Both the position numbers and the translations under genes were made by a program. A DNA stretch of 64,000 nt from a virus. This document shows, in pieces, positions 36,720 to 49,575 of the stretch (the stretch's first letter is position 1; every line of letters starts with the position of its first letter). The notes beneath the pieces are model-generated. The model was given only the letters and a program-made list of their open reading frames with translations, made no database searches and was not told the DNA's origin. The stretch is taken from the IMG/VR virus record IMGVR_UViG_3300027797_000019, positions 1-64,000 of that record. The stretch is one strand, 5' to 3'.

Positions 36720-38051
36720 ATGAGTCTAATTTCATCTGTATATCAGAGTTTAAAACGCAAACGCTCTGATCAGGAGAAAGCTGAAAAGATAGGCATTCCC
36801 TTAAAAAAATACCTTGCATTAAAAGAGTTAATAGTTAATGCAATTAGTGAAATTTCTTCTGTAGTTGATAGTCACGTTGTTGATTATTTGCAAGGAAAGT
36901 TAGTTGATAAAGTTGAAGAAACAGCTCTCATTGGTCAATTAAATGAAGAGCTTGGTAAAATTGTCATTGATAAATCAAAGTCTGAAGGAGCTACTATTGT
37001 TGAACAGCACGTTGATCTGGAGACCGGTACTACAAAAATTACCGGTCTTTTTGCTGCTGAGCCTAGAAGTTCTGAAGAAATAATAGAGCTACTTAATATT
37101 GATACACGAAAGTGGAAACTTTCGCAATACTGGAACAAAGAAAAAAGTGGGCGATGGTATGTGTCAGCACTTGTAAGTAAACTTCCAGAGGAGCAAGTTA
37201 TACAAAGCACGTTTTTAGAGATTCTTCAAAATTATGAATTACCGGAAATTCAACCCCTCGACAAGAGTAACATCTTGCTCAATAAATCAGCAGAAGAAAA
37301 AGTCTGTGGAGTTTTCTCTCTTCAAGATCTTCACTTTGGAAAACCAGGAAACGAAAATCTCGGAGAAATTCTTGAAAACTGTGTAAAGTCCTTATTAACA
37401 AAGGCTTACAATACATACTACCTTGATGAAATAATTTTTGTAGTTGGTGGAGATGCTCTAAATATGGACACATTTAACGGTACAACCACAAAGGGGACTA
37501 TTGTAGAAAATGGGGAAGGTCCTGTAGAAACCTACATTAAAGCTTTTGACTCTCTTATGCAAACAATTGGGACAATATCTCAATTTTGCAATAAGCTAAA
37601 AATAGTATACTTACCAGGTAATCATGATAGATTGTCATCATTTCATCTGGTACATGCTTTACAGCAAGGTTTTAAAGATTGGTCAAATATTGATTTTGAT
37701 AGCGCATATGCTGAAAGAAAAGTACACCTATATGGTTTAAATATGTTCTGTTTTGAGCATGGTGATGTGACTACAAAAAACAATCCTTTGGTATATGCGA
37801 CAGAATTTCCTATTGAATGGGGTTCTGCATCATTTAGAACTCTCTATGTTGGACATTATCACACAAAGAGGTCAAAGGAATACTTGACAGAAAACGAAGA
37901 AAACGGGTTTACAACTCGTCAACTTCCAAGTTTGTCATCCTCAGATTATTATCATTACCACAATAAATGGACTGGTAATAAGCGCGCAGGAATTTTAGAA
38001 CTGCACTGTGAGAAGAAAGGTAAAGTTTCAGAGTTTGTTTATACACTTTAA
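36720..38051 (+). CDS. calcineurin-like metallophosphoesterase
   Basis: QDLHFG, GGD, GNHD, EHGD and GHYH motifs. Confidence 0.88.
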   Translation: MSLISSVYQSLKRKRSDQEKAEKIGIPLKKYLALKELIVNAISEISSVVDSHVVDYLQGKLVDKVEETALIGQLNEELGKIVIDKSKSEGATIVEQHVDLETGTTKITGLFAAEPRSSEEIIELLNIDTRKWKLSQYWNKEKSGRWYVSALVSKLPEEQVIQSTFLEILQNYELPEIQPLDKSNILLNKSAEEKVCGVFSLQDLHFGKPGNENLGEILENCVKSLLTKAYNTYYLDEIIFVVGGDALNMDTFNGTTTKGTIVENGEGPVETYIKAFDSLMQTIGTISQFCNKLKIVYLPGNHDRLSSFHLVHALQQGFKDWSNIDFDSAYAERKVHLYGLNMFCFEHGDVTTKNNPLVYATEFPIEWGSASFRTLYVGHYHTKRSKEYLTENEENGFTTRQLPSLSSSDYYHYHNKWTGNKRAGILELHCEKKGKVSEFVYTL

Positions 38052-38719: not shown

Positions 38720-39394
38720 ATGGTAACTATTGGAGAAGTAATATCTAGGGTGCGTAATCAAGTTAAGTCGGTAAAGCAAGACGCTTTTTTAACCGACCGT
38801 TTTCTTCATTCCCTTATTCGCAAATACGCAGCACTAATGATGCGACGTCAGGACAACCTGAATCGCATTATGAAATTTAACTCTGTATTTCAAGCTCTTT
38901 CTTTTGTTGAGCTTATTGAAATTGATAAGATTGAAGCACAATGTCATTGTGTTGAAAGTGGTTGCACATTTAAAAGAACAAAAGATAAAGTACCAGCTTT
39001 AATGCAGGGTTACTGGGGTCCTCTTATGAGGTCGGTTACAAGTATTGATATAAGTGAAGAACTTGTACCAACATTTCCGCACACATTTGAAAAGATTGCA
39101 AACCAAAAGACGTTTAAATACAATAGGAAAAAATACTATTGGTATTTAGACGGGTATTTGTATTTCCCAAATCTAGAGTGGGATGCTATTAGAATTGAAG
39201 GTGTGTTTGAAGAAGACATTAGTAAATACAATTGCGATATTAAAGATGATTGTTTGTATATGCAGGATCGTGGATTTCATGTTCCTGAATTCCTTTTTGC
39301 AGAAATCGAACAGAATGTTGTAAGAGATCTCGCGGGAATGATTCAGATTCCTTCTGATATTATGCAAGACAACAGACACCTTGCTAGACAATAA
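38720..39394 (+). CDS. tail ring/tubular protein
   Basis: MVTIGEVISRVR start, YYWYLDGYLYF and IRIEGVFE motifs. Confidence 0.7.
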   Translation: MVTIGEVISRVRNQVKSVKQDAFLTDRFLHSLIRKYAALMMRRQDNLNRIMKFNSVFQALSFVELIEIDKIEAQCHCVESGCTFKRTKDKVPALMQGYWGPLMRSVTSIDISEELVPTFPHTFEKIANQKTFKYNRKKYYWYLDGYLYFPNLEWDAIRIEGVFEEDISKYNCDIKDDCLYMQDRGFHVPEFLFAEIEQNVVRDLAGMIQIPSDIMQDNRHLARQ

Positions 39395-39405
39395 AACATT
39401 AAACG

Positions 39406-40500
39406 ATGCTTACGGAACTTCAATATAGGACATTTGACGAGCTTCTGCAGAGCGTTGAGATTGACATGAAAGGTGTCGATAGTCAAGGTTATGTAGAACC
39501 ACAAGAATTGCTTAAAGTAGCAATTAAAGTCAACAGAGAATTAGGTTTAAAAATCAATCCTTCTAGACAGAAGTGTATTGAAATACATAAAGGAAAAGCC
39601 AGACTACCTGAAGATTTTAACGTGTTAAATTTTGCCTTGGTTTGCGAGTCAAGAAATGAGCATCCTATAGTTAGAAAAGAGAAGACTTACAACCAGGGTT
39701 TATTAGAGGGTGTTTTAATGGCACAGAACATTCTTTCTAGAACAAGTGTTGATCAGTTTACGATTACAATGGATTTACAACCTAATGGTAATCTTATCAG
39801 TCATACTCTAAATACAATGGATGTAATTGTACAAGCACAATTACCTGATGGAACCCTAGCTTCATTTGATTTTTCTACACCAAGTACAGGTGAGATTATT
39901 TTAGACAATGATACAGCACAATTAATTACAGGTGTAAAGATTATCATTATTGGTAAAAAGTCAATTACAAATTTTGGTAGTCAACAACATACTAATCTTA
40001 ATAATGACGACAATAATCCTTCAGTTACCTATATCTATAATAACGTAGTTAATACTTATAAAAGATTAGTACCAATTGAAATTAGACCCAGCAGAAAAAT
40101 TATGAATGACTGCTGGAATCTTACTGTAAAAAGTCATTACATAGGTTACTTAGAAAATGGATTTTTCCATGTCAATTTTGACGAGGGTACAATTTATCTA
40201 AATTATTCTTCTGTAATGGAGGATGACGCGGGTAATCTTTTGGTTTTTGATCACCCTATTGTAAATGAATATTATGAATATGCACTAAAAGAGCGAATCT
40301 TTGAGAATATGTTTTTGAGTGGTGAGTCTTCAGTACAAAACAAATTGCAGTTTATATCTCAGAAATTGAGAATGTCAAGAAATAATGCATTTAGTTATGT
40401 AAATACTCCTGACTTTAATGAGTTGAAGCGCGTTTGGGAAATGAATAGAAAAGCGCAATACCACAACTACTACAACATGTTTAAGAGCAATATACGATGA
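39406..40500 (+). CDS. tail ring/adaptor protein with an inserted beta-rich domain
   Basis: IEIHKGKARLPEDF, FDEGTIYLNY and YYEYALKE motifs; located before the muzzle gene. Confidence 0.65.
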   Translation: MLTELQYRTFDELLQSVEIDMKGVDSQGYVEPQELLKVAIKVNRELGLKINPSRQKCIEIHKGKARLPEDFNVLNFALVCESRNEHPIVRKEKTYNQGLLEGVLMAQNILSRTSVDQFTITMDLQPNGNLISHTLNTMDVIVQAQLPDGTLASFDFSTPSTGEIILDNDTAQLITGVKIIIIGKKSITNFGSQQHTNLNNDDNNPSVTYIYNNVVNTYKRLVPIEIRPSRKIMNDCWNLTVKSHYIGYLENGFFHVNFDEGTIYLNYSSVMEDDAGNLLVFDHPIVNEYYEYALKERIFENMFLSGESSVQNKLQFISQKLRMSRNNAFSYVNTPDFNELKRVWEMNRKAQYHNYYNMFKSNIR

Positions 40501-40850
40501 GCATTATACAAAAAAAGATTAAGGTTGGTGTTTATGATGCCAATGTGGTTTTTATGGTAACTGACTCAATGGAGGAAGTTGCGATAAAAACATTTCGTAA
40601 AACAAAAGAAATCTGGTCTATTGAAGACGCAGACGGTTGTGTTTTTTATACAACAGGTTTGTACTATTTAGTGCTTCTACAAGAACAAATATCTCACAAC
40701 CTTATAGCTCATGAAATATTTCATCTTTCAACTCGGATATGCGAAGATAGATATATCGAAGATGAAGAAACAAAAGCTTGGTTAACAGGTTATCTTACTG
40801 AAAACATTTATAAGTTTTTAGACAAAAAGAAAATTGAAATAAAGCTATGA
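40497..40850 (+). CDS. small HExxH (mini-zincin-like) protein
   Basis: IAHEIFHL...DEETKAWLTGYL. Confidence 0.7.
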   Translation: MSIIQKKIKVGVYDANVVFMVTDSMEEVAIKTFRKTKEIWSIEDADGCVFYTTGLYYLVLLQEQISHNLIAHEIFHLSTRICEDRYIEDEETKAWLTGYLTENIYKFLDKKKIEIKL

Positions 40851-43800
40851 GTCAAGGGCTTGATAATAAAAGTAGTCTGCAGAAGAACAATACCTTTACA
40901 AAAGGTATGGTTAAAGACTTTAACGACCTATTTGTCGGTGAGGGGTTGTGGACTCATGCCCGTAATGCGGTAAACAATTCACATCTTGGTGAGGTTGGTG
41001 TGTTAGGAAATGAGCAGGCAAATAGATACTGTACTACAGCTCCCTACACTATAATAGGATTAATCCATAAGTCAAGTAGTGAGTGGATTGTATTTTCTAC
41101 AAATAATACCGATAGCGAAATTGGAATTTTTGATGAAGGTTTGTGTAAATACACAAAATCTGTAAATGATAAATGTCTTGGTTTTAAGACAACTAATTTA
41201 ATTACTGGTGCAGCAAAAGAAAACTTTGACTGTACTCACTCTGTTTATTGGCAAGACGGGTTAAATCCTGATCGGTATATTAATCTGGATAATATACCCT
41301 ATAAGAAGACTGGCGTCAACCTTTCCCCAGATCCTTCATGTTATATTCCAGAATATTCAGATGAATTGGATTGTGAAAAGACCCTCTTGCAATCTATAGT
41401 AGAAACACCCTGTATTCGTATCAGTAAGGGGAAAGGTGCCGGTCAATTACTTAATGGTTCTTATCAAGCTGTAATCGCTTACTCTGTAAATGGTGTTAGA
41501 GTAACGGATTACTTTAAACCAAGTAATGTTCAATCGCTGTGGAGTCATAGTGGTGTAGGTGGTTCAATGGAAATAGATATTGATGAAATAGACACAACAT
41601 TTGATGAGTTTGAACTTGTTATGGTCACTACAGTCAATTTGCAAACTGTAGCTCGCAGAATAGGATATTATAATACTCGTCAAAAGAAAATAGTTCTTGA
41701 CCTTATAGATCAAGCATGGGTAACAATACCCTTGTCTTACATTCCTCTTCAAAATGCACTTTATTACAAGAGTGATAAAATATTTGAGATTAATGGTTAC
41801 CTACTAAGATCTGGTGTAACAACAAGACCTGATTTTAATTATCAACCTTTAGCAAACCAGATTCAGTCTAAATGGGTTTCTGTAGAATATCCTTCTAACT
41901 ATTACATTAGAGGTGGTAATAAAACTTCATACATGCGTGATGAGGTCTATAGCTTCTTTATTCGTTGGATTTATAAAACTGGTCATCGTTCTGCATCTTA
42001 TCATATTCCAGGTAGAGCACCAATAGCAACCGACACGCAAATAGCTACTGGTAATGATGTTTTGCCTGGTGAAACAATAAATTGGCAGGTTTATAATACT
42101 GCTACAAAAACAGCGGCTTCAGGAATACTTCCAGACGGTGGGGTATTATCTTTCACAGGTCAAATGGGGTATTGGGAATCTACAGAAAAATATTCTGATG
42201 ACAAACCTGATATTTGGGGTCCATTGTGTGGTAAACCTATTAGACATCATAAGTTTCCTGATAACGTTACAACACATATACACTCTAACGCAGGTTCGAA
42301 AATTTCAATACTAGGTGTTGAATTTTTAAATATTCAGCACCCGTTAGATTTAGATGGTAATCCTATAGAAGATATTGTAGGATATGAGATATTAAGAGGA
42401 TCTCGTGAGGGTAATAGAAGCATAGTTGCTAAAGGATTGTTTAACAACATGTGGGAATATGAAATTGATGGACAACCTGGTAAAAAAGGATTGTATCAAA
42501 ATTTTCCATATAATGACTTGAATCCAAATGTGTTTTTAAGAACAGCGTTGAAAAAAGATAATGGTAATAAACCTGATCACAGTTCACTTGCACCGTCAAG
42601 TTATCGTAAGGATATTTACTCTTTTCATTCACCTGATACTACATTTAACAAACCTTTTTTCTCTCAAGGTGCAGTAGAAGTATATACGGTTGAGCATGGC
42701 TCTGTTGAAGGTAAATTTGAATTTCCATATAAGCATCCTAAAAGTAAATTAATTACAGATGGTGCTTTTGTATTTGCATCTGTTGTCGGTGCCGGTATAG
42801 CAGTTCTTGCAGCTTTAGGTAAGGCGACAAACAGGACTGATGTAAGCGCTACATTTCTTGGTGCAGGTGTAATAAAAATATCACAAGCTGAATCAGGAAC
42901 TGCTACAGCTATTCCTGATATAGCAAGTATGATTACAGCAAGACCTGTAGGTACAGTTGCTGGTATTCTGTTAGCAGCACCAGCATTAATATATTATGGT
43001 GCTCTCGGTATTCAATCTGCTTTGGAAGCTATTTATGCATTTAGTCCATTTAGGGATTATGCTTTGCAAGTAAACTCTCACGGATTTTACAATAATGCAA
43101 TACCGATTACTAATAAAGGTAACAGGCGTAGAGCAGTTACAGATAATTCTGGAAGATATATTGATCCATTTGTTCAAGCATATGTTGATAATTTGAAGAT
43201 TAATAATTTATTTAGAAATAAGTTTGTAGCAGTAAAACTATCTAGTCAATTATCTGACCCACATGTTAATGTTGGTAATAATTCTATTAAGGATAATTCA
43301 AGAGTAAGAATTCATGATTTAGAAAAGCATGATGATCCTACAAATGGCGTGTATAGTAGAAATACATCTGCATATTATGGGGCAATTAAATTGAGCTATG
43401 AGAATCAATATGGACAATTAGATTCTATTGTTCAGCTTCCTATTGAAAGTTGCATATTCAAAACACAACCTGGTTCAATTAGATATCGAACTGGAGCATT
43501 ATTTGGAGGAGATGTGTATATTAATCGATACACTGAAAAAAATCCATATATGTTTTTTAATCAGTGGTTACTAGGTGAAAACAATGGTACAGAATACAAC
43601 TATAAGAATTATATTAATGGACCGTTTCCTCGTTACTGGGCAAACTTAGAAAGGTTTGATTTAAATGATTTTACAATCAAACTAAATTTAAAGAAAGGTT
43701 TAGAACTTACTACACCAAGTGATTTTCATCATATGGATAGAGCTGGTAGTAAGACTGGTGTTTTTGTACTTAAGCGAGCGTTTTTTTATCTATTTAATAA

Positions 43801-45481
43801 TGGCGTGAGAGATTTCTTTGTGGAATCCGAAATAAACCTTGCACATAGAGATTACGGTGAATTGTTACATGAAAAACATTTTGAACCTGAAGGATACTCT
43901 GACTACAATGAAATGTTTAGATCAGATATTATCACTAAAGGTAACTACTATAAATATGATTTTTCTTTAAGCGTATCTAAGCTATATAACAATTTTTCAA
44001 CTTGGGGTAAAGTACTTCCTAGAAGTTATGATCCACGAGTTGCGGTAGATTGTTTTGAGTATTATCCGAGTCGAGTTATTTATTCATTACAACAACAGGA
44101 TGAACTAAAACGTGATAATTGGAAAGCATATCTTGCAAATAACTATAAGGATTTTGGAGGTAAGGTAAGTAATATCAAAAGCTTAAATGAGAATGGTGCT
44201 GTTATTCTATATGAAGATTCAGAACCTACTCGTTTTGTAGGCGTAGATACACTTCAAACTCAAGGTGGTACAAAAATTACTATAGGGGATGGTGGATTAT
44301 TCCAACAGAACATGCAATCCCTTGTTAACGCTGATGATATTCTAGAATATGGAAGTTGTCAAAGTCATAGATCAGCTATAAATACTCCTTATGGATTGTT
44401 TTACATTTCTCAGAAAATTGGTAAAGTGGTCCAATATGGTGGCGGAGGTTTAGAAGAAATATCTCGTAACGGTATGCGTCTCTGGTTTGCTGAGTACTTA
44501 CCATCTAAGTTATTGCAAGCATTTCCTGATTATGATCTCTATGATAATCCTGTTGAAGGAATTGGTTGCCAGACAATATATGATGGTCAGTATGATTTGA
44601 TCTATTTTACAAAAAGAGATTTTAAACCATTACTACCAGAAATTAAATATGACATAGAAGCTAAGAAGTTTTATGTTCCTTGTAATTACAATCTAATAGA
44701 AAACCAACCTTTAACACCGGTTGGTAGCAGATGCTATGTTGAACTTACAAATCCTAAATATTTTGAAGATTGTAGCTGGACTATCAGTTATGACCCTAAG
44801 TCAAAAGTTTGGGTAAGTTTTCACGACTGGCATCCTAGTTTGACATTACCTGCATATGAGCATTTCTTAACAGTTAAAGGTTCAGAGTTTTGGAAACATA
44901 ATGATCGTTGTGATCTTTATTCTAACTACTACGGTATTGACTATCCTTGGGAAGTAGAATTTCCTGTGACAAGTGGTAACAATGTAACTACTACAAGAAG
45001 TGTAGAATATTTACTGGAGAACTACAAATACTATAATGATTGCCAGGACAGTTTTGCTCCTCTTGATCATAACTTTGACAGGGCTGTTATTTATAATAAC
45101 GAGCAAATATCAGGTGTATTAGAGTTGCAGGTAAAGCCTAAAAATAATCCTATAGCATTACTGCAGTATCCAATTGCTGGTACTAATTCAGTACAAATAC
45201 ATTACTCAAAAGAAGAGAATAAGTATCGATTTAATCAGTTTTGGGATCTAACCAGAAACAGATTTGAATTTGTGGGCGGAGCTGTACCAATGTGGATTAC
45301 CGAAGCTAATGGATATAAAAGGCGTATTAATCCTACATATATCAATTATGCTAAACCTCCGCTGGAACGTAAGAAATTCCGTCACTACGGAAATAGGTTG
45401 TTCTTGAGAAAGAATATAAGTGGTGAAATAAAAATGCTTCTTAAATTATTTACAACCAAACAACTGGTAAGTTTTAGATAA
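40847..45481 (+). CDS. tail stabilisation/muzzle protein
   Basis: NTFTKGMVKD...HARNA N-terminus, YMRDEVYSF, WTISYDP..WVSFHDW; 1544-aa beta-rich protein. Confidence 0.8.
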   Translation: MSQGLDNKSSLQKNNTFTKGMVKDFNDLFVGEGLWTHARNAVNNSHLGEVGVLGNEQANRYCTTAPYTIIGLIHKSSSEWIVFSTNNTDSEIGIFDEGLCKYTKSVNDKCLGFKTTNLITGAAKENFDCTHSVYWQDGLNPDRYINLDNIPYKKTGVNLSPDPSCYIPEYSDELDCEKTLLQSIVETPCIRISKGKGAGQLLNGSYQAVIAYSVNGVRVTDYFKPSNVQSLWSHSGVGGSMEIDIDEIDTTFDEFELVMVTTVNLQTVARRIGYYNTRQKKIVLDLIDQAWVTIPLSYIPLQNALYYKSDKIFEINGYLLRSGVTTRPDFNYQPLANQIQSKWVSVEYPSNYYIRGGNKTSYMRDEVYSFFIRWIYKTGHRSASYHIPGRAPIATDTQIATGNDVLPGETINWQVYNTATKTAASGILPDGGVLSFTGQMGYWESTEKYSDDKPDIWGPLCGKPIRHHKFPDNVTTHIHSNAGSKISILGVEFLNIQHPLDLDGNPIEDIVGYEILRGSREGNRSIVAKGLFNNMWEYEIDGQPGKKGLYQNFPYNDLNPNVFLRTALKKDNGNKPDHSSLAPSSYRKDIYSFHSPDTTFNKPFFSQGAVEVYTVEHGSVEGKFEFPYKHPKSKLITDGAFVFASVVGAGIAVLAALGKATNRTDVSATFLGAGVIKISQAESGTATAIPDIASMITARPVGTVAGILLAAPALIYYGALGIQSALEAIYAFSPFRDYALQVNSHGFYNNAIPITNKGNRRRAVTDNSGRYIDPFVQAYVDNLKINNLFRNKFVAVKLSSQLSDPHVNVGNNSIKDNSRVRIHDLEKHDDPTNGVYSRNTSAYYGAIKLSYENQYGQLDSIVQLPIESCIFKTQPGSIRYRTGALFGGDVYINRYTEKNPYMFFNQWLLGENNGTEYNYKNYINGPFPRYWANLERFDLNDFTIKLNLKKGLELTTPSDFHHMDRAGSKTGVFVLKRAFFYLFNNGVRDFFVESEINLAHRDYGELLHEKHFEPEGYSDYNEMFRSDIITKGNYYKYDFSLSVSKLYNNFSTWGKVLPRSYDPRVAVDCFEYYPSRVIYSLQQQDELKRDNWKAYLANNYKDFGGKVSNIKSLNENGAVILYEDSEPTRFVGVDTLQTQGGTKITIGDGGLFQQNMQSLVNADDILEYGSCQSHRSAINTPYGLFYISQKIGKVVQYGGGGLEEISRNGMRLWFAEYLPSKLLQAFPDYDLYDNPVEGIGCQTIYDGQYDLIYFTKRDFKPLLPEIKYDIEAKKFYVPCNYNLIENQPLTPVGSRCYVELTNPKYFEDCSWTISYDPKSKVWVSFHDWHPSLTLPAYEHFLTVKGSEFWKHNDRCDLYSNYYGIDYPWEVEFPVTSGNNVTTTRSVEYLLENYKYYNDCQDSFAPLDHNFDRAVIYNNEQISGVLELQVKPKNNPIALLQYPIAGTNSVQIHYSKEENKYRFNQFWDLTRNRFEFVGGAVPMWITEANGYKRRINPTYINYAKPPLERKKFRHYGNRLFLRKNISGEIKMLLKLFTTKQLVSFR

Positions 45482-48400
45482 TGGAGAATTTATATAAATA
45501 CATTTCATTTGATGGTTATCGAAACGATAGTCCTGATAGATACAACCCTGTAAATATTATTCCTACAGGTCGTATTTCTATGAGAGATGTTAATTATCCT
45601 GTTTTTGGTATAGACGAATATGGTAATGGAGGTATTATGTATCCTGGTAATGATTATCAGTTTACAGGAAATACTGTTTTAGAAATTCCTATGATGCAGC
45701 GTGGGGGACAACCTGTATATGATAACATTCCTAGTCCAGCTGTTATGAGGTCTAAAGCTCAAGCAGATCATGAAGCTGATATAGTATTAAGACAGAAAGC
45801 TCTTCAACCTATTACAAAGCCAGTTATTGATTTTATGCAGGAATGGATGAGTTCACCTATGTATAAAGCTATGCTTCAAAAGAGCAACGGTTCTAGTATA
45901 GCTAAAGGAAGAGAGAAACAGCTTCAGACAATGCGTGCACCTGGTTCATTTAATATAGATGTTGACTTAAATCCATATCATGATTGGGTAGATAATTTTT
46001 TTGTACCTAGAACTTTAGGTTCATACGGTATAAATACCCTTACTGGGGAAAATAAAATCTATATAGATAAAAAAGAGACCGATCCAAAGAGACGTAAAGA
46101 AATTGCAGTTCATGAACTTTCTCATGCTACTGATAATCCTAATGGTGCTGGTGGAACACCATTATTACCCGCTGCTGATATTGCTAAGATGCAAGCATAC
46201 AGAGCTGCATTTGATAAAACAAGGAAATCTAAACCTGAAGACTGGCAGACTGAGTTTTATAACTATTTAGCTGAACCAACTGAAACAAGAGCTAGATTAA
46301 ATACACTTAGATATCTTGGTAAACAAAAAGGTATTTATGATCCTTTTACAGAGAAGATTGATAAAAACAAGTTAGATAAGTTTAACTCACTTTTTTCAAA
46401 TGATATTTCTTTAAGACAGCTAAGAGAAATATACTCTGATGAACAGATAACAGATATGCTAAACAGTATTTCTAAAGTACCATCTGTTTCAAGTATCCCT
46501 TTAGCAAAAGGCGGTGGACAGCACGGTGGTCTCGACAGATGGTTCGCTGAAAAGTGGGTTGATGTTAAGACAGGTAAAGAATGTGGTAGACAAGAAGGTG
46601 AAAAACGTAAAGGTTATCCCGCATGTCGTCCTTCTAAAAGAGTATCTACTGATACTCCGAAAACAGCTTCAGAATTATCTTCTGCTGAAAAAGCAAGATT
46701 TAAAAGAGAGAAAACATCTAGTAAAAGAATTTCATATAACCATAAGAAAGAAGAAGGTGGTGAGCTTGAATTAGCTCAATATGGATATATGATACCACCT
46801 GCTGGATTCAATCTTATGCTTGGAGCATCAGAGTTATATAACTATTTCTTTGGTGATGAACCTAAAGAAGTAAGTAAACCTCAGGTTAAGAATGTTAGTC
46901 CAATGGGTTCTATGTATCAGCTATATAATGCTGATTTAAACCAGTTCAAATCACAAAAGACTAATAATGATAAACTAAACCAAAATAACTCAGGAAACAT
47001 TAATCTTTCATCTGGTAGATTTCAAGGTGCACAAGTATCGCCAGAAGTGATAAAAGAAGCTGTTGCATCTGCTAAAGCCCAGGGAATAGATCCGTGGTTA
47101 ATGCTATCTGTAATCGGAAGAGAATCAACATTTGGTAGTGGTACTGATGCAAACATAAAAAGAGCAGGTAGTAAATCAAAATTGGTATCTGGTTGGGATG
47201 TTGCAGAGAATTATACCCCATACGATCCTTTAAGATTTCTTGCAGACAAAAAAGTTCCGGGTGTTAGTACAACTCGTGATGCACACGGTTGGCATTATAA
47301 GTTAGATGATAAAGCTGCGTTGAATAAATATTTATCACAACATCCTGAATTAGTAGCTCAATATCAAAAGAAAGTAGAGAGTACCCCCGAACTTGGTAAT
47401 CTTGATAGTTTTGATTTAGCTGCTAAATTTATTAAAGAACGAGGTCTTGCTCGTTATAACCCTGGAGATCCTAATTATTCTTCAATGGTTAATCAAGACA
47501 TGAAATTATTACAATCTGACCCTAAATTAAAAGCATATATGAAAACGCTTGGATATGAGAACGGTGGCGAACTATTTGATATGAAATCAGGTGGTAATGT
47601 ACCGACAAATCCTTCACTATGGAGTAAAGCAAAAGCTGCTGCAAAAGCAAAATATGATGTGTATCCTTCTGCATACGCAAATGGTTTTGCTGCTAAATGG
47701 TATAAACAGCGCGGAGGTAGTTGGAAAAAAGCTGCTGAAGGTGGATGCTTTGAATGCGGTGGACAGTTTGCAGAAGGTGGTGTTAACTATAATGACATGT
47801 TGAATCAACCAGTATTTATTCCAACAAACTTTGTTCAGTTTGGTGGTGTAGCAAATCCACTAAAGCAACTGCAAAATATGGATACGGGTGATAAAATACA
47901 ATTAGCAAAATTAGCAATGATGTTTGCTAAAGATGGCGGTGAAGCTGACGGGGGAATGGCACTTACACAAGTAAATGCAATGATTGATAGACTTAATAAC
48001 CTTAAGAATTTTATTACTCTTGAATCAGATTTAGATCCGTGGATCAGTGATAAAATATCTGTAATGAATCATTCTGCTACTGCAATTAATGATTACATGC
48101 AATATGGTGAACAAGAAGAACCTGAGGAAATGAGAGAAGGTGGAGGTATACCTACAAGGTATAAAAATATGGGATTCAGTAAGGTGGGTGTTAAAAAAGA
48201 ATCTTCTCGTCCTGGTAAGAAATGGATGGTACTTGCTAAAAAAGGCGATGACTATAAAGTTGTTCATGGTGGTTACGATGGTATGAAGGACTTTTCTCAA
48301 CATGGTTCTGAAAAACGTAAAGATCGTTTTTGGGATCGTATGGGTGGAAAAGATTCTGCAAAAGCAAAAGATCCATTTTCACCATTATACTGGCATAAGA

Positions 48401-49575
48401 AGTTTGGTACTTGGGCTGAAGGTGGTGAACCTCAGAATGAAGGGTTTCAAGCATTACCCGAAGAAGTGCAAAATAAAATTTTGAAAAGAATGATTGGTGG
48501 TGGAGAAGAAGGCGATTGGATGACAATTGGTAAAACTACTAATAGAAACATTGCAGCTTATCAAGATAAACCTACCAGGAGCATGGTGAACTTTGGTGCT
48601 AATACAACACTTAATCCTACACTATATGCTATTGAGGGTATGGATGACAAAGGTTTTTTTGGTGATCTTGCTGCTATTGCATTGGGTGCTGGTGCACTAA
48701 ATAATGTTGGATTAGGTTACAGAAAACTTTTGGGTCCTGCATCTAAGACACAGACTCAGATGAATACTAGGACTGGTAAAATGGTAACATCCAATCTCAT
48801 GGATCGTGATAGTAAGAAATTAATGAATCAGTGGGAAAAACCTGAGTTTTATCAAGAACCTGTTCAAGATGAGTTAAGACGAAAGCAAAAAATGAATTTG
48901 AGTGTTCCACCGACTGGTGTAGATACAATTCCGATGGATAGTTTTGAAAACATGGCAAAGTATGGAGGATATTATGTAAGCAAAATGCTAACCGGTGGTC
49001 AACCTATGTTGTCAAAAGATGAATGGATGCAACAGAATGGTAGAGGGTTAATGGGTCAAGAATTACAAGATGAAAAAGATTATCAAGCGTATGTGCAACA
49101 GTGGCAGCTTGAGAATGAAAATTCAACAACTCAACAAACGCCTGCAACTACAACAACTACAACCCCTGAAGTAACTACAAGACTTGGTAAATCAAAGATG
49201 ATTCCAAATCTTGAGTTAGATCCAGAAGGGCAAGCTCTTGCTTACGGTACTATTTCTGCGATAAGTACAATTGCTAACAGAAAGAATCGTAAAGACACCT
49301 TAAAAGAGTACGAAGCAAATCTTCAAAAGTATGGTAATACTGACTTTAGATTTGATAACAATTATGTCAATCGTGATATGTTTGGTCAATACACTACTAA
49401 CAGAGCACAAGGTCAAAACTTTATTTTAAATAAAACTACTTATGCTCAAGACATGGGTAATCAATTTAATTATGGTTTTGGTACAAACTTTAAAGAAGGT
49501 GGTGAATATGATTTAACACCTCAGCAGATTGCAGCTATCATGGCTGCTGGTGGAGAGATTGAGTTTATTGATTAA
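45481..49575 (+). CDS. modular virion cargo protein (zincin, transglycosylase-like and DUF5872-like modules, GG linkers)
   Basis: HELSH..E, GIDPWLMLSVIGRESTFG, GLDRWFAEKWVDV and PSAYANG motifs; about 16 xxxGG linkers. Confidence 0.75.
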   Translation: MENLYKYISFDGYRNDSPDRYNPVNIIPTGRISMRDVNYPVFGIDEYGNGGIMYPGNDYQFTGNTVLEIPMMQRGGQPVYDNIPSPAVMRSKAQADHEADIVLRQKALQPITKPVIDFMQEWMSSPMYKAMLQKSNGSSIAKGREKQLQTMRAPGSFNIDVDLNPYHDWVDNFFVPRTLGSYGINTLTGENKIYIDKKETDPKRRKEIAVHELSHATDNPNGAGGTPLLPAADIAKMQAYRAAFDKTRKSKPEDWQTEFYNYLAEPTETRARLNTLRYLGKQKGIYDPFTEKIDKNKLDKFNSLFSNDISLRQLREIYSDEQITDMLNSISKVPSVSSIPLAKGGGQHGGLDRWFAEKWVDVKTGKECGRQEGEKRKGYPACRPSKRVSTDTPKTASELSSAEKARFKREKTSSKRISYNHKKEEGGELELAQYGYMIPPAGFNLMLGASELYNYFFGDEPKEVSKPQVKNVSPMGSMYQLYNADLNQFKSQKTNNDKLNQNNSGNINLSSGRFQGAQVSPEVIKEAVASAKAQGIDPWLMLSVIGRESTFGSGTDANIKRAGSKSKLVSGWDVAENYTPYDPLRFLADKKVPGVSTTRDAHGWHYKLDDKAALNKYLSQHPELVAQYQKKVESTPELGNLDSFDLAAKFIKERGLARYNPGDPNYSSMVNQDMKLLQSDPKLKAYMKTLGYENGGELFDMKSGGNVPTNPSLWSKAKAAAKAKYDVYPSAYANGFAAKWYKQRGGSWKKAAEGGCFECGGQFAEGGVNYNDMLNQPVFIPTNFVQFGGVANPLKQLQNMDTGDKIQLAKLAMMFAKDGGEADGGMALTQVNAMIDRLNNLKNFITLESDLDPWISDKISVMNHSATAINDYMQYGEQEEPEEMREGGGIPTRYKNMGFSKVGVKKESSRPGKKWMVLAKKGDDYKVVHGGYDGMKDFSQHGSEKRKDRFWDRMGGKDSAKAKDPFSPLYWHKKFGTWAEGGEPQNEGFQALPEEVQNKILKRMIGGGEEGDWMTIGKTTNRNIAAYQDKPTRSMVNFGANTTLNPTLYAIEGMDDKGFFGDLAAIALGAGALNNVGLGYRKLLGPASKTQTQMNTRTGKMVTSNLMDRDSKKLMNQWEKPEFYQEPVQDELRRKQKMNLSVPPTGVDTIPMDSFENMAKYGGYYVSKMLTGGQPMLSKDEWMQQNGRGLMGQELQDEKDYQAYVQQWQLENENSTTQQTPATTTTTTPEVTTRLGKSKMIPNLELDPEGQALAYGTISAISTIANRKNRKDTLKEYEANLQKYGNTDFRFDNNYVNRDMFGQYTTNRAQGQNFILNKTTYAQDMGNQFNYGFGTNFKEGGEYDLTPQQIAAIMAAGGEIEFID

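Follow-up and report, generated by a model that had tools for sequence, protein, structure and literature searches.

Gly-Gly joints border swappable modules in a probable ejected cargo protein of a marine crAss-like phage

Introduction

Several viruses carry proteins or polyproteins that invite comparison with the gene described here. T7 gp16 and other podovirus ejection proteins carry a lytic transglycosylase domain and are single-purpose proteins of fixed architecture; the internal proteins and Alt of T4 bear an N-terminal targeting peptide that is cut after Glu. Among eukaryotic viruses, the adenovirus protease acts at sites of the form (M/L/I)-X-G-G-X, cutting ahead of the final X, and the polyproteins pp220 and pp62 of African swine fever virus (ASFV) are cut by pS273R. 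In the phage PhicrAss001, the pieces of the cargo protein gp45 that were resolved by cryo-electron microscopy (cryo-EM) span residues 214-245 and 425-552, the second being one compact domain, and the published model is of a single chain stretched from the tail barrel to the capsid, with up to 12 copies estimated per virion (Bayfield et al. 2023, PMC10172136). Processing has been proposed for polyvalent and crAss cargo polyproteins (PMC5512222; 10.1101/2020.03.07.982082), and the make-up and handling of large injected protein cargo are poorly understood. Here we describe a gene of this kind in a stretch of 64,000 nucleotides (the window; positions 1 to 64,000 of IMG/VR virus record IMGVR_UViG_3300027797_000019), drawn from a contig of 97 kb that is 81% complete and that, judging from its genes, is from a marine crAss-like phage:

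45481-49575, + strand: cargo gene, an open reading frame (ORF) of 1,364 amino acids (aa)

In kind, its product is a polyvalent cargo protein of the ejected type, which is known; the rule by which its modules are joined at Gly-Gly (GG) motifs and the precision with which that rule is kept were not found in the literature searched. We tentatively favor the view that this is a modular (polyvalent) ejected cargo protein in which the joints act as hinges and are left uncut.

Results

A hydrophobic-x-x-Gly-Gly motif recurs in the cargo protein and its homologues

An initial annotation of the window had listed 16 motifs of the form (hydrophobic)-x-x-Gly-Gly in this ORF, and all of them were found, at residues 75, 344, 426, 695, 704, 754, 766, 788, 819, 887, 981, 1006, 1162, 1172, 1340, and 1357. 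The protein holds 27 GG dipeptides when compared to 11.6 ± 3.1 expected from composition (z = 5; 5,000 shuffles, the maximum in any shuffle being 26), and the pattern [MFWYLIVA]-x-x-GG occurs 18 times in it as against 0-5 times per ORF in 18 other ORFs of the window. Since neither those ORFs nor four further giant ORFs of the contig (z <= 0) show this enrichment, the GG signal is specific to the cargo gene and not a result of composition. Seven of the 27 counts are not joints: two (50 and 224) lack conservation, four (349, 745, 930, and 955) are internal to modules, and one is an overlapping count from the GGG run at 344-346.

A word-indexed search recovered at least 585 homologues of 750-2,387 aa and at least 638 of 30-749 aa. 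GG was enriched about twofold in both sets (2,638 observed, 1,337 expected in the first; 2,007 and 912 in the second). After removal of the GGs inside known modules, a logo built from 2,150 distinct GG contexts read hydrophobic(-6)-x-x-[M/Y/W/F]-[Q/E/K/A]-x-G-G-[E/Q]-[I/P/M/V]. Position -3 was hydrophobic in 67% of contexts compared with a background of 28% (M 31%, Y 20%, W 5%, F 6%), position -6 in 44%; position -2 was Q, E, K, or A in 69%, position +1 was E or Q in 33%, and I, P, M, or V stood at +2. The two hydrophobic positions ahead of the GG have helical spacing, and the information that the motif carries beyond the GG itself is low (about 3 bits). In aligned homologues the joint GGs were conserved at 0.7-1.0, while the surrounding residues were often at 0.05-0.4. 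In an AlphaFold2 (AF2) model of aa 1-1010, all joints fell in stretches with a predicted local distance difference test score (pLDDT) below 50, between confidently predicted islands, and helices often stopped just before the GG.

Modules are gained, lost, and reordered at the joints

Whether module gain and loss coincides with the motifs was a check that had been proposed for them, and both protein and nucleotide comparisons show that it does. Of 573 internal ends of BLASTP blocks, 64% lay within 5 aa of a GG, compared with 18% for random positions, and the median distance was 3 aa rather than 24 aa. In a nucleotide comparison with a complete relative, G001 (L004), homology to the window spans aa 4-72, 345-767, and 766-1365, and thus breaks within 3 codons of GG75, GG344, and GG766. 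Individual junctions illustrate the pattern (a slash marks the joint). P0001 reads PMMQRGG/QPVY, followed by a zincin-like module and PLAKGG/GQHGGLDRWF, where P0003 reads directly PMMGSGG/QHGGLDRWF; P0005 carries a 354-aa insert that starts at RQEGG/EQISIN and closes at KAEGG/ELELAQ; P0004 and P0006 read LEDGG/QPEV, then APEGG/FYVKEMGG/VNYNDML. Since the junctions fall cleanly at GG in protein and DNA alike, we define a cassette as a module together with its own C-terminal hydrophobic-x-x-GG.

Homologues that are 79-99% identical differ by whole cassettes. Among 119 homologues that we compared, cassette content and order vary, with the lysozyme-like cassette, for instance, standing before or after the basic cassette. 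Cassettes of relatives matched ADPrib_exo_Tox (E 3e-10), SET (E 1e-7), YkuD (E 4e-8), and Glucosaminidase (E 1e-5), and further domains in relatives are LysM, PG_binding, and phage lysozyme. These comparisons support a predicted payload array of swappable modules. In one large sublineage the array is encoded by two separate genes, which stand after the muzzle gene and before the next giant ORF, and split relatives have a 41-aa N-terminal leader that ends in MKKGG immediately before the first module. In the split sister lineage (L008:6696-9995, L009:7849-9996, L012:6850-8379, and other proteins bearing the N1 head module) the first gene ends with GG(QTS)WLNKYK and its stop codon; in fused forms, the same WL-x-GYK element stands ahead of a joint.

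Joints of this kind could also be nothing but a by-product of recombination, in which GGT-GGT microhomology in a genome of 35% G+C marks sites of illegitimate recombination and has no role in the protein. The DNA breakpoints near GGs in the comparison with L004 would be expected in that case, and GAA-GGT-GGT-GA does recur at three joints. Set against these, we found no DNA motif common to the joints beyond codon bias (GGT is the common Gly codon, and the codon pairs vary); conservation is at the amino-acid level, persisting at 40% identity and across marine and gut crassviruses; and positions -3, -2, and +1 are constrained. We therefore give this explanation hardly any weight, and return to a protein-level role of the joints, for which we favor uncut hinges.

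About ten distinct modules make up the protein

The cargo protein contains about 10 distinct modules, which follow one another in this order:

45481-45711, + strand: N1 module, aa 1-77, a beta-rich, conserved head that ends in PMMQRGG; in 91 of 119 homologues
45712-46509, + strand: optional zincin-like cassette, aa 78-343, with HELSH at 211-215, ending in PLAKGG; in 15 of 119 homologues
46519-46764, + strand: basic GLDRWFAEKW..YPACRP cassette, aa 347-428, ending in KEEGG; DUF5872 positions 52-111; in 82 of 119 homologues
46765-47571, + strand: lysozyme-like or lytic-transglycosylase-like cassette, aa 429-697, with GRESTFG, ending in YENGG; in 34 of 119 homologues
47596-47748, + strand: PTNPSLW..PSAYANG cassette, aa 706-756, ending in AAEGG; DUF5872 positions 1-39 (E 3.5e-5), PHROG 27331; in 74 of 119 homologues
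47749-47952, + strand: short spacers, aa 757-824, with five joints (CFECGG, QFAEGG, VQFGG, FAKDGG, EADGG); AF2 pLDDT <50
47953-48147, + strand: DLDPWISDKI helical-hairpin cassette, aa 825-889, ending in MREGG; in 44 of 119 homologues
48148-48429, + strand: KKWMV..SPLYW cassette, aa 890-983, ending in FGTWAEGG; Pfam DUF5754; in 97 of 119 homologues
48430-48504, + strand: short helical cassette, aa 984-1008, ending in KRMIGGG; in 65 of 119 homologues, in variable order; AF2 helix 994-1005, then GGG
48505-49506, + strand: conserved C-terminal region, aa 1009-1342; common to 55-56 of 119 homologues
49507-49575, + strand: conserved C-terminal tail EYDLTPQQIAAIMAAGGEIEFID and stop codon; nearly identical in all C2-bearing homologues

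The N1 head is always terminated by a GG and was modeled with pLDDT 62-86 over residues 10-72; Pfam has no family for it. Searched as a profile against 1.84 billion representatives, N1 returned 4,112 clusters at 50% identity (E <= 1e-3), and the cargo array thus appears, from its sequence relatives, to belong to a very large family. Proteins bearing N1 are 84-3,028 aa long, with the module mostly at the N terminus and sometimes internal, and many of them end in another conserved tail, GG(QTS)WLNKYK.

The zincin-like cassette is missing exactly between GG75 and GG344 in P0003, P0005, and L004. Its matches were weak: a PHROG metallo-protease at E 0.009, Peptidase_M90 at E 0.12, which is below cut-off, and a lead to LPD23 from the ESM Atlas; its profile matched nothing in the PDB. 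In the lysozyme-like cassette, 28 homologues show no variation at the Glu and Ser of GRESTFG, and the named neighbors in the ESM Atlas all belong to glucosaminidase, SLT, or lysozyme families (scores 0.82-0.88). The AF2 model of this cassette has pLDDT 60-91 and reached a goose lysozyme in Foldseek only at E 1.4; no Pfam match at E <= 10 and no PDB profile match was obtained. The labels zincin and transglycosylase-like that these two modules had first been given thus stand as far as the HELSH and GRESTFG motifs and the weak leads go, and did not gain a family match.

Profile searches were firmer for the basic modules. The suggestion that some modules resemble DUF5872 was borne out, and DUF5754 was added to it. 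Pfam DUF5872 matches aa 347-413 at E 3.5e-19 (69.9 bits; curated cut-off 27.5), and DUF5754 matches aa 907-954 at E 3.8e-6, with 27.3 bits here against a cut-off of 27.4 and 28-29 bits in relatives; the closing GG of the DUF5754 cassette is 100% conserved. In Prochlorococcus phage P-SCSP2 the basic DUF5872 part also exists alone, as a protein of 87 aa that lacks the GG tail and is encoded between the genes for scaffold and capsid. A T4-like cyanophage protein contains a string of similar basic modules; the PSAYANG cassette is 77-80% identical to part of a T4-like cyanophage protein. Both DUF5872 and DUF5754 are listed in a giant algal virus genome in one paper. As an observation on the family itself, Pfam DUF5872 consists of two independent cassettes (positions 1-39 and 52-111). 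In the cargo protein these halves are reversed and about 290 aa apart, with the lysozyme-like cassette between them.

Within the spacer run, a 208-aa cassette is inserted exactly at GG766 in P0004, P0006, and L004. The helical-hairpin cassette was modeled as helices 825-843 and 853-875, and a wide VIA-align search with the model matched only region 820-886, to generic hairpins. Near 1065-1092 the C-terminal region is hydrophobic and rich in Gly; its joints are at 1162, 1172, and 1340, and the tail EGGEYYADEDEIKRILAMGGEIEFLD that follows it is nearly invariant (AF2 pLDDT about 70; a helix, then a strand). Over aa 1-1010 the mean pLDDT was 52.6, with confident islands at 10-72, 268-331, 471-694, 706-749, and 889-978; aa 1009-1364 were modeled as helical at low confidence (mean pLDDT 47.8). 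Foldseek of the AF2 model against the PDB returned nothing at E <= 0.001, and sequence and profile searches of the PDB with the whole protein gave no matches.

The gene occupies the C1 position of a crAss-type tail block

Upstream of the cargo gene lie three genes of the tail:

38720-39394, + strand: tail ring protein 2, crAss type (Pfam CrAss_Ring_2, E 1.3e-22)
39406-40500, + strand: tail ring protein 1, crAss type (Pfam CrAss_Ring_1, E 3e-9)
40847-45481, + strand: muzzle-like protein of 1,544 aa (PHROG virion structural protein, E 4e-71; BLASTP to PhicrAss001 gp44, E 7e-6)

The stop codon of the muzzle-like gene overlaps the start of the cargo gene. The order is ring 2, ring 1, muzzle, cargo gene, and then giant ORFs that have no family matches, and the muzzle-like gene lies directly upstream of the cargo gene, with the gene order kept, in 13 related viral loci or contigs. 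In PhicrAss001, gp45 ('cargo protein C1') is encoded by the gene that follows the muzzle gene, ahead of giant ORFs of the RNA-polymerase type. ORF 45481-49575 likewise comes next after the muzzle gene of a crAss-type tail block, and since it occupies the same place as gp45, it is a C1-type cargo gene by position. Among portal proteins, that of Leptolyngbya phage Lbo-JY46 shares 33% identity with the portal encoded here, and those of gut Crassvirales share about 23%.

Other genes of this region were noted as well. After the cargo block come four giant ORFs, at contig positions 59477-70429, 70439-77137, 79240-84225, and 84229-91662 (3,650, 2,232, 1,661, and 2,477 aa); the first contains an HExxH motif, the last two are Gly-rich, and none is GG-enriched. 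In the structural region, four thrombospondin repeats of the spondin type were recognized in ORF 34577-35461 (294 aa; Pfam TSP1_spondin, E 1.3e-43), and beside it ORF 32764-34554 has an FN3 domain and is GG-enriched (z 3.8) in sequence contexts different from those of the cargo joints. A DNA-repair-exonuclease-like gene (36720-38051; PHROG 704, E 8e-45) lies within the structural block just ahead of the ring genes, as it does in relatives L009 and L013, and ORF 30183-30563 (126 aa) matches Pfam DUF5856 (E 2.7e-19).

Gut crassvirus C1 proteins have joints of the same kinds

PhicrAss001 gp45 (L007:11988-14516) has joints of the same kinds, namely FSAYGG, AFAEGGG, LKAFGG, IAKDGG, WNAFGG, INEGG, and MFAYGG, and contains 21 GGs where 13.2 are expected (z 2.4-2.5 in two shuffle runs). 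The C1 proteins DAC17_54 (z 3.0), crAss002 gp30 (z 2.3), and an LMMB homologue (z 1.6) are built alike, with such joints and with blocks bounded by GG. Blocks of gp45 homology in other Crassvirales, located by tblastn, begin or end at 264-329, 369, and 425/427, which are GGs of gp45. The cassette-joint design thus appears, by sequence comparison, to be common to the marine cargo protein and the C1 proteins of gut crassviruses. One small cassette of relatives (I-x-I-x-P-x-x-KG-x-FT...RKRA-x-FA-x-NA) weakly matches gp45 370-421 (hhalign E 6e-4, probability 28%). In DAC17 gene 54 (L023:1925-4423), a cassette of the form IHIKK-x-NRGKFT...RKRA-x-FA-x-NARKW is tandemly duplicated, its copies bracketed by AEGG and GGG joints; the IHIKK-type cassette also occurs in PhicrAss001 gp45 and in marine relatives of the cargo protein. 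For homology of the cargo protein to PhicrAss001 gp45 or gp46, BLASTP, module hidden Markov models (HMMs), and hhalign gave no significant match, and a by-eye match of N1 to the portal-binding domain of gp45 was unsupported.

The two resolved pieces of gp45 fall within the GG-bounded stretches 211-264 and 429-563. These are short helical pieces bound to the ring proteins and near the muzzle, and they bear on a further explanation, according to which the motif serves docking or packaging: an amphipathic helix with its GG would bind a repeated site (the portal, the ring proteins, the capsid floor, or a scaffold) and so load any cassette that bears it. The conserved C-terminal tails (helix-GG-EIEFLD; GG-WLNKYK) resemble docking peptides, and the hydrophobic periodicity ahead of the GG points the same way. 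Against docking, the resolved segment 214-245 excludes the motifs themselves, the roughly 17 copies per chain exceed the known binding sites, and outside the GG the motif holds little information. We regard docking as improbable, and we retain uncut hinges as the tentatively preferred role.

Searches for a protease and published gel data

Searches of the contig and of two complete relatives, both of which carry terminal repeats, found nothing at E <= 1 for Peptidase_C39 (PF03412), C48/Ulp1 (PF02902), C5/adenain (PF00770), the prohead protease families S78 and S77 (HK97 type and T4 type), or Prok-JAB. A ubiquitin-like scheme with E1 and JAB enzymes, prompted by the ThiF and metalloprotease annotated in PhicrAss001, was dropped since Prok-JAB and ThiF are absent. 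The zincin-like module was likewise rejected as a universal processing enzyme, since only 15 of the 119 homologues have it and four near-complete relatives retain the joints without it.

Counted from a cut after the GG, the hydrophobic residue of the motif occupies P5 (67%), with Q, E, K, or A at P4, when in adenovirus sites it is P4 that is hydrophobic. We know of no GG-protease site with a hydrophobic residue at P5. The last GG of the C-terminal tail is replaced by GA, GF, or GY in some homologues and for this reason looks structural there.

We also matched the published matrix-assisted laser desorption/ionization (MALDI) peak lists of PhicrAss001 gel bands 1-9 (PMC6235969, supplementary file 14) to theoretical digests. 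Band 3 matched gp47 (47 matches) and gp50 (49), compared with about 15 by chance; band 4 matched gp49 (46 matches; 9 by chance) and gp44 (17; 4.6 by chance); bands 1 and 2 gave 6 and 10 matches to gp44, with about 1-2 by chance. Using the same lists, gp45 (90.8 kDa) stayed at chance level in every band of at least about 70 kDa.

Discussion

The initial annotation had read this gene as a plug-in payload system whose GG motifs are cleavage or packaging signals. The part of it that describes a swappable payload array at the cargo position agrees with our results; cleavage at the GGs, in the form stated, is not supported, given that none of the protease families searched for turned up, the hydrophobic position falls at P5, the zincin is optional, and the tail GG is replaceable. 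The protein is probably packed in the particle and injected, and we tentatively infer that the chain stays uncut and that the joints work as hinges. In our tentative model, the N1 head and the conserved C-terminal region, with its docking-type tail, would frame a variable set of small, independently folding cassettes, like beads on a string. Each cassette brings its own C-terminal joint, usually at the end of an amphipathic helix, and the joint would act as an uncut helix stop and hinge. Folding and packing into the cargo space would then be possible cassette by cassette, as would unfolding one after another during extrusion through the tail. Because every cassette ends alike, recombination between joints would yield in-frame, working arrays, and this would explain gain, loss, and reordering exactly at the joints.

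Several observations weigh against uncut hinges. A plain flexible linker needs neither two invariant glycines nor Met or Tyr three residues upstream nor Glu or Gln after them, and GG enrichment is lacking in the other giant cargo ORFs, although they too must go through the tail. Enzymes expected to act in the periplasm (lysozyme-like, YkuD) and in the cytoplasm (ADP-ribosyltransferase, SET) stand on one chain, which is easier to understand if the chain is cut; the very short spacer runs between GGs (aa 754-824) resemble spacer peptides; and standalone homologues of cassettes lack the GG tail. To these may be added the chance-level score of gp45 in the larger gel bands and the fact that overall homology between the cargo protein and gp45 is not significant (BLASTP E 0.47; module HMMs E >= 0.004, two sequences; N1 E 0.17).

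The main rival explanation is a maturation polyprotein, cut after the GG by a protease of an unrecognized kind (from the phage, from the host, or, in some lineages, the zincin cassette itself), in the particle or after injection, into free effectors. We consider it a serious though doubtful alternative. The motif is specific and conserved independently of the neighboring cassette; a cassette consists of a module plus a C-terminal GG that its standalone homologues do without; there are tandem mini-spacers; the leader of split relatives ends in MKKGG right before the first module; payloads of different cellular destinations share a chain; and processing of such polyproteins has been proposed (PMC5512222; 10.1101/2020.03.07.982082). 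The absence of an intact gp45 fingerprint at or above about 70 kDa fits fragmentation, as negative evidence from bands 1-9 only. On the other side stand the lack of C39, C48, C5, S78, S77, or JAB peptidases in the contig and the two complete relatives, the zincin cassette's absence from most homologues and from four near-complete genomes, the hydrophobic residue at P5, the three GGs that lie within the cryo-EM-resolved gp45 domain 425-552, and the replaceable tail GG; the missing enzyme family, the optional zincin, and the tail together count against cutting. The broader proposition, that the joints are real sites of a Gly-Gly-specific protease and that in crAss-like phages, gut Crassvirales included, a polyprotein of swappable effectors matures inside the particle or upon injection, seems to us less likely than not. 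If it were true, bacteriophages would have their own counterpart to the polyprotein processing of adenovirus and ASFV, and the tail-bound and capsid-bound pieces of gp45 would be separate fragments and not one chain threaded through the portal.

The joint rule is of use on either reading. It offers a way to parse thousands of unannotated cargo proteins, the N1 head alone occurring in more than 4,000 clusters at 50% identity, and the stretches between two joints make up a catalogue of candidate injected effectors. The analysis also supplies DUF5872 and DUF5754 with their first context; both are small basic viral modules found in cyanophages as well and, as one paper has it, in giant algal viruses. 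Cut joints would mean a maturation system that is new, and the arrangement of gp45 in the current PhicrAss001 model would then have to be revised; uncut joints, which we tentatively favor, would amount to a natural design rule for proteins that are packed and then threaded through a narrow channel.

The closest known systems can now be set beside the cargo protein. It shares with PhicrAss001 gp45 and the C1 proteins of Crassvirales the position of the gene, joint kinds (AFAEGG, IAKDGG, MFAYGG), GG-bounded homology blocks, and a hydrophobic Gly-rich segment; it differs in being 1.6 times longer, in its enzyme-like, DUF5872, and DUF5754 cassettes, which gp45 lacks, and in its stronger GG enrichment (z 5 compared to 2.4). 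With polyvalent proteins (Iyer, Burroughs, Anand, de Souza, Aravind 2017, PMC5512222), it has in common the many unrelated effector-type domains on one polypeptide and an architecture that varies rapidly and strongly between close relatives, a gene placed among virion genes, and, counting relatives, a putative zincin-type metallopeptidase, a muramidase, and an ADP-ribosyltransferase among the domains. The words 'linker' and 'Gly-Gly' are absent from the main text of that paper, which does not describe a conserved joint motif, and the DUF5872 and DUF5754 cassettes and the N1 head are apparently not in its catalogue, the lead from the ESM Atlas to LPD23 being weak. Of systems with double-glycine leaders and a C39 peptidase encoded with the substrate, the peptidase has no counterpart here, PF03412 being without a match in the three genomes. 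Adenovirus and ASFV polyproteins resemble the array in having GG at the borders of virion modules, a hydrophobic residue upstream, and small basic, possibly nucleic-acid-binding modules; here the hydrophobic residue is one position further upstream (P5), no clan-CE protease matched, the host is bacterial, and it is only in those eukaryotic viruses that cleavage is known. With T7 gp16 and the internal proteins and Alt of T4, finally, the array shares a putative wall-degrading domain and, in relatives, an ADP-ribosyltransferase; those known systems carry such domains in the particle and inject them ahead of the DNA, in single-purpose proteins of fixed architecture, those of T4 with a targeting peptide and not GG joints, whereas the crAss-like cargo protein is predicted to string them together as exchangeable cassettes.

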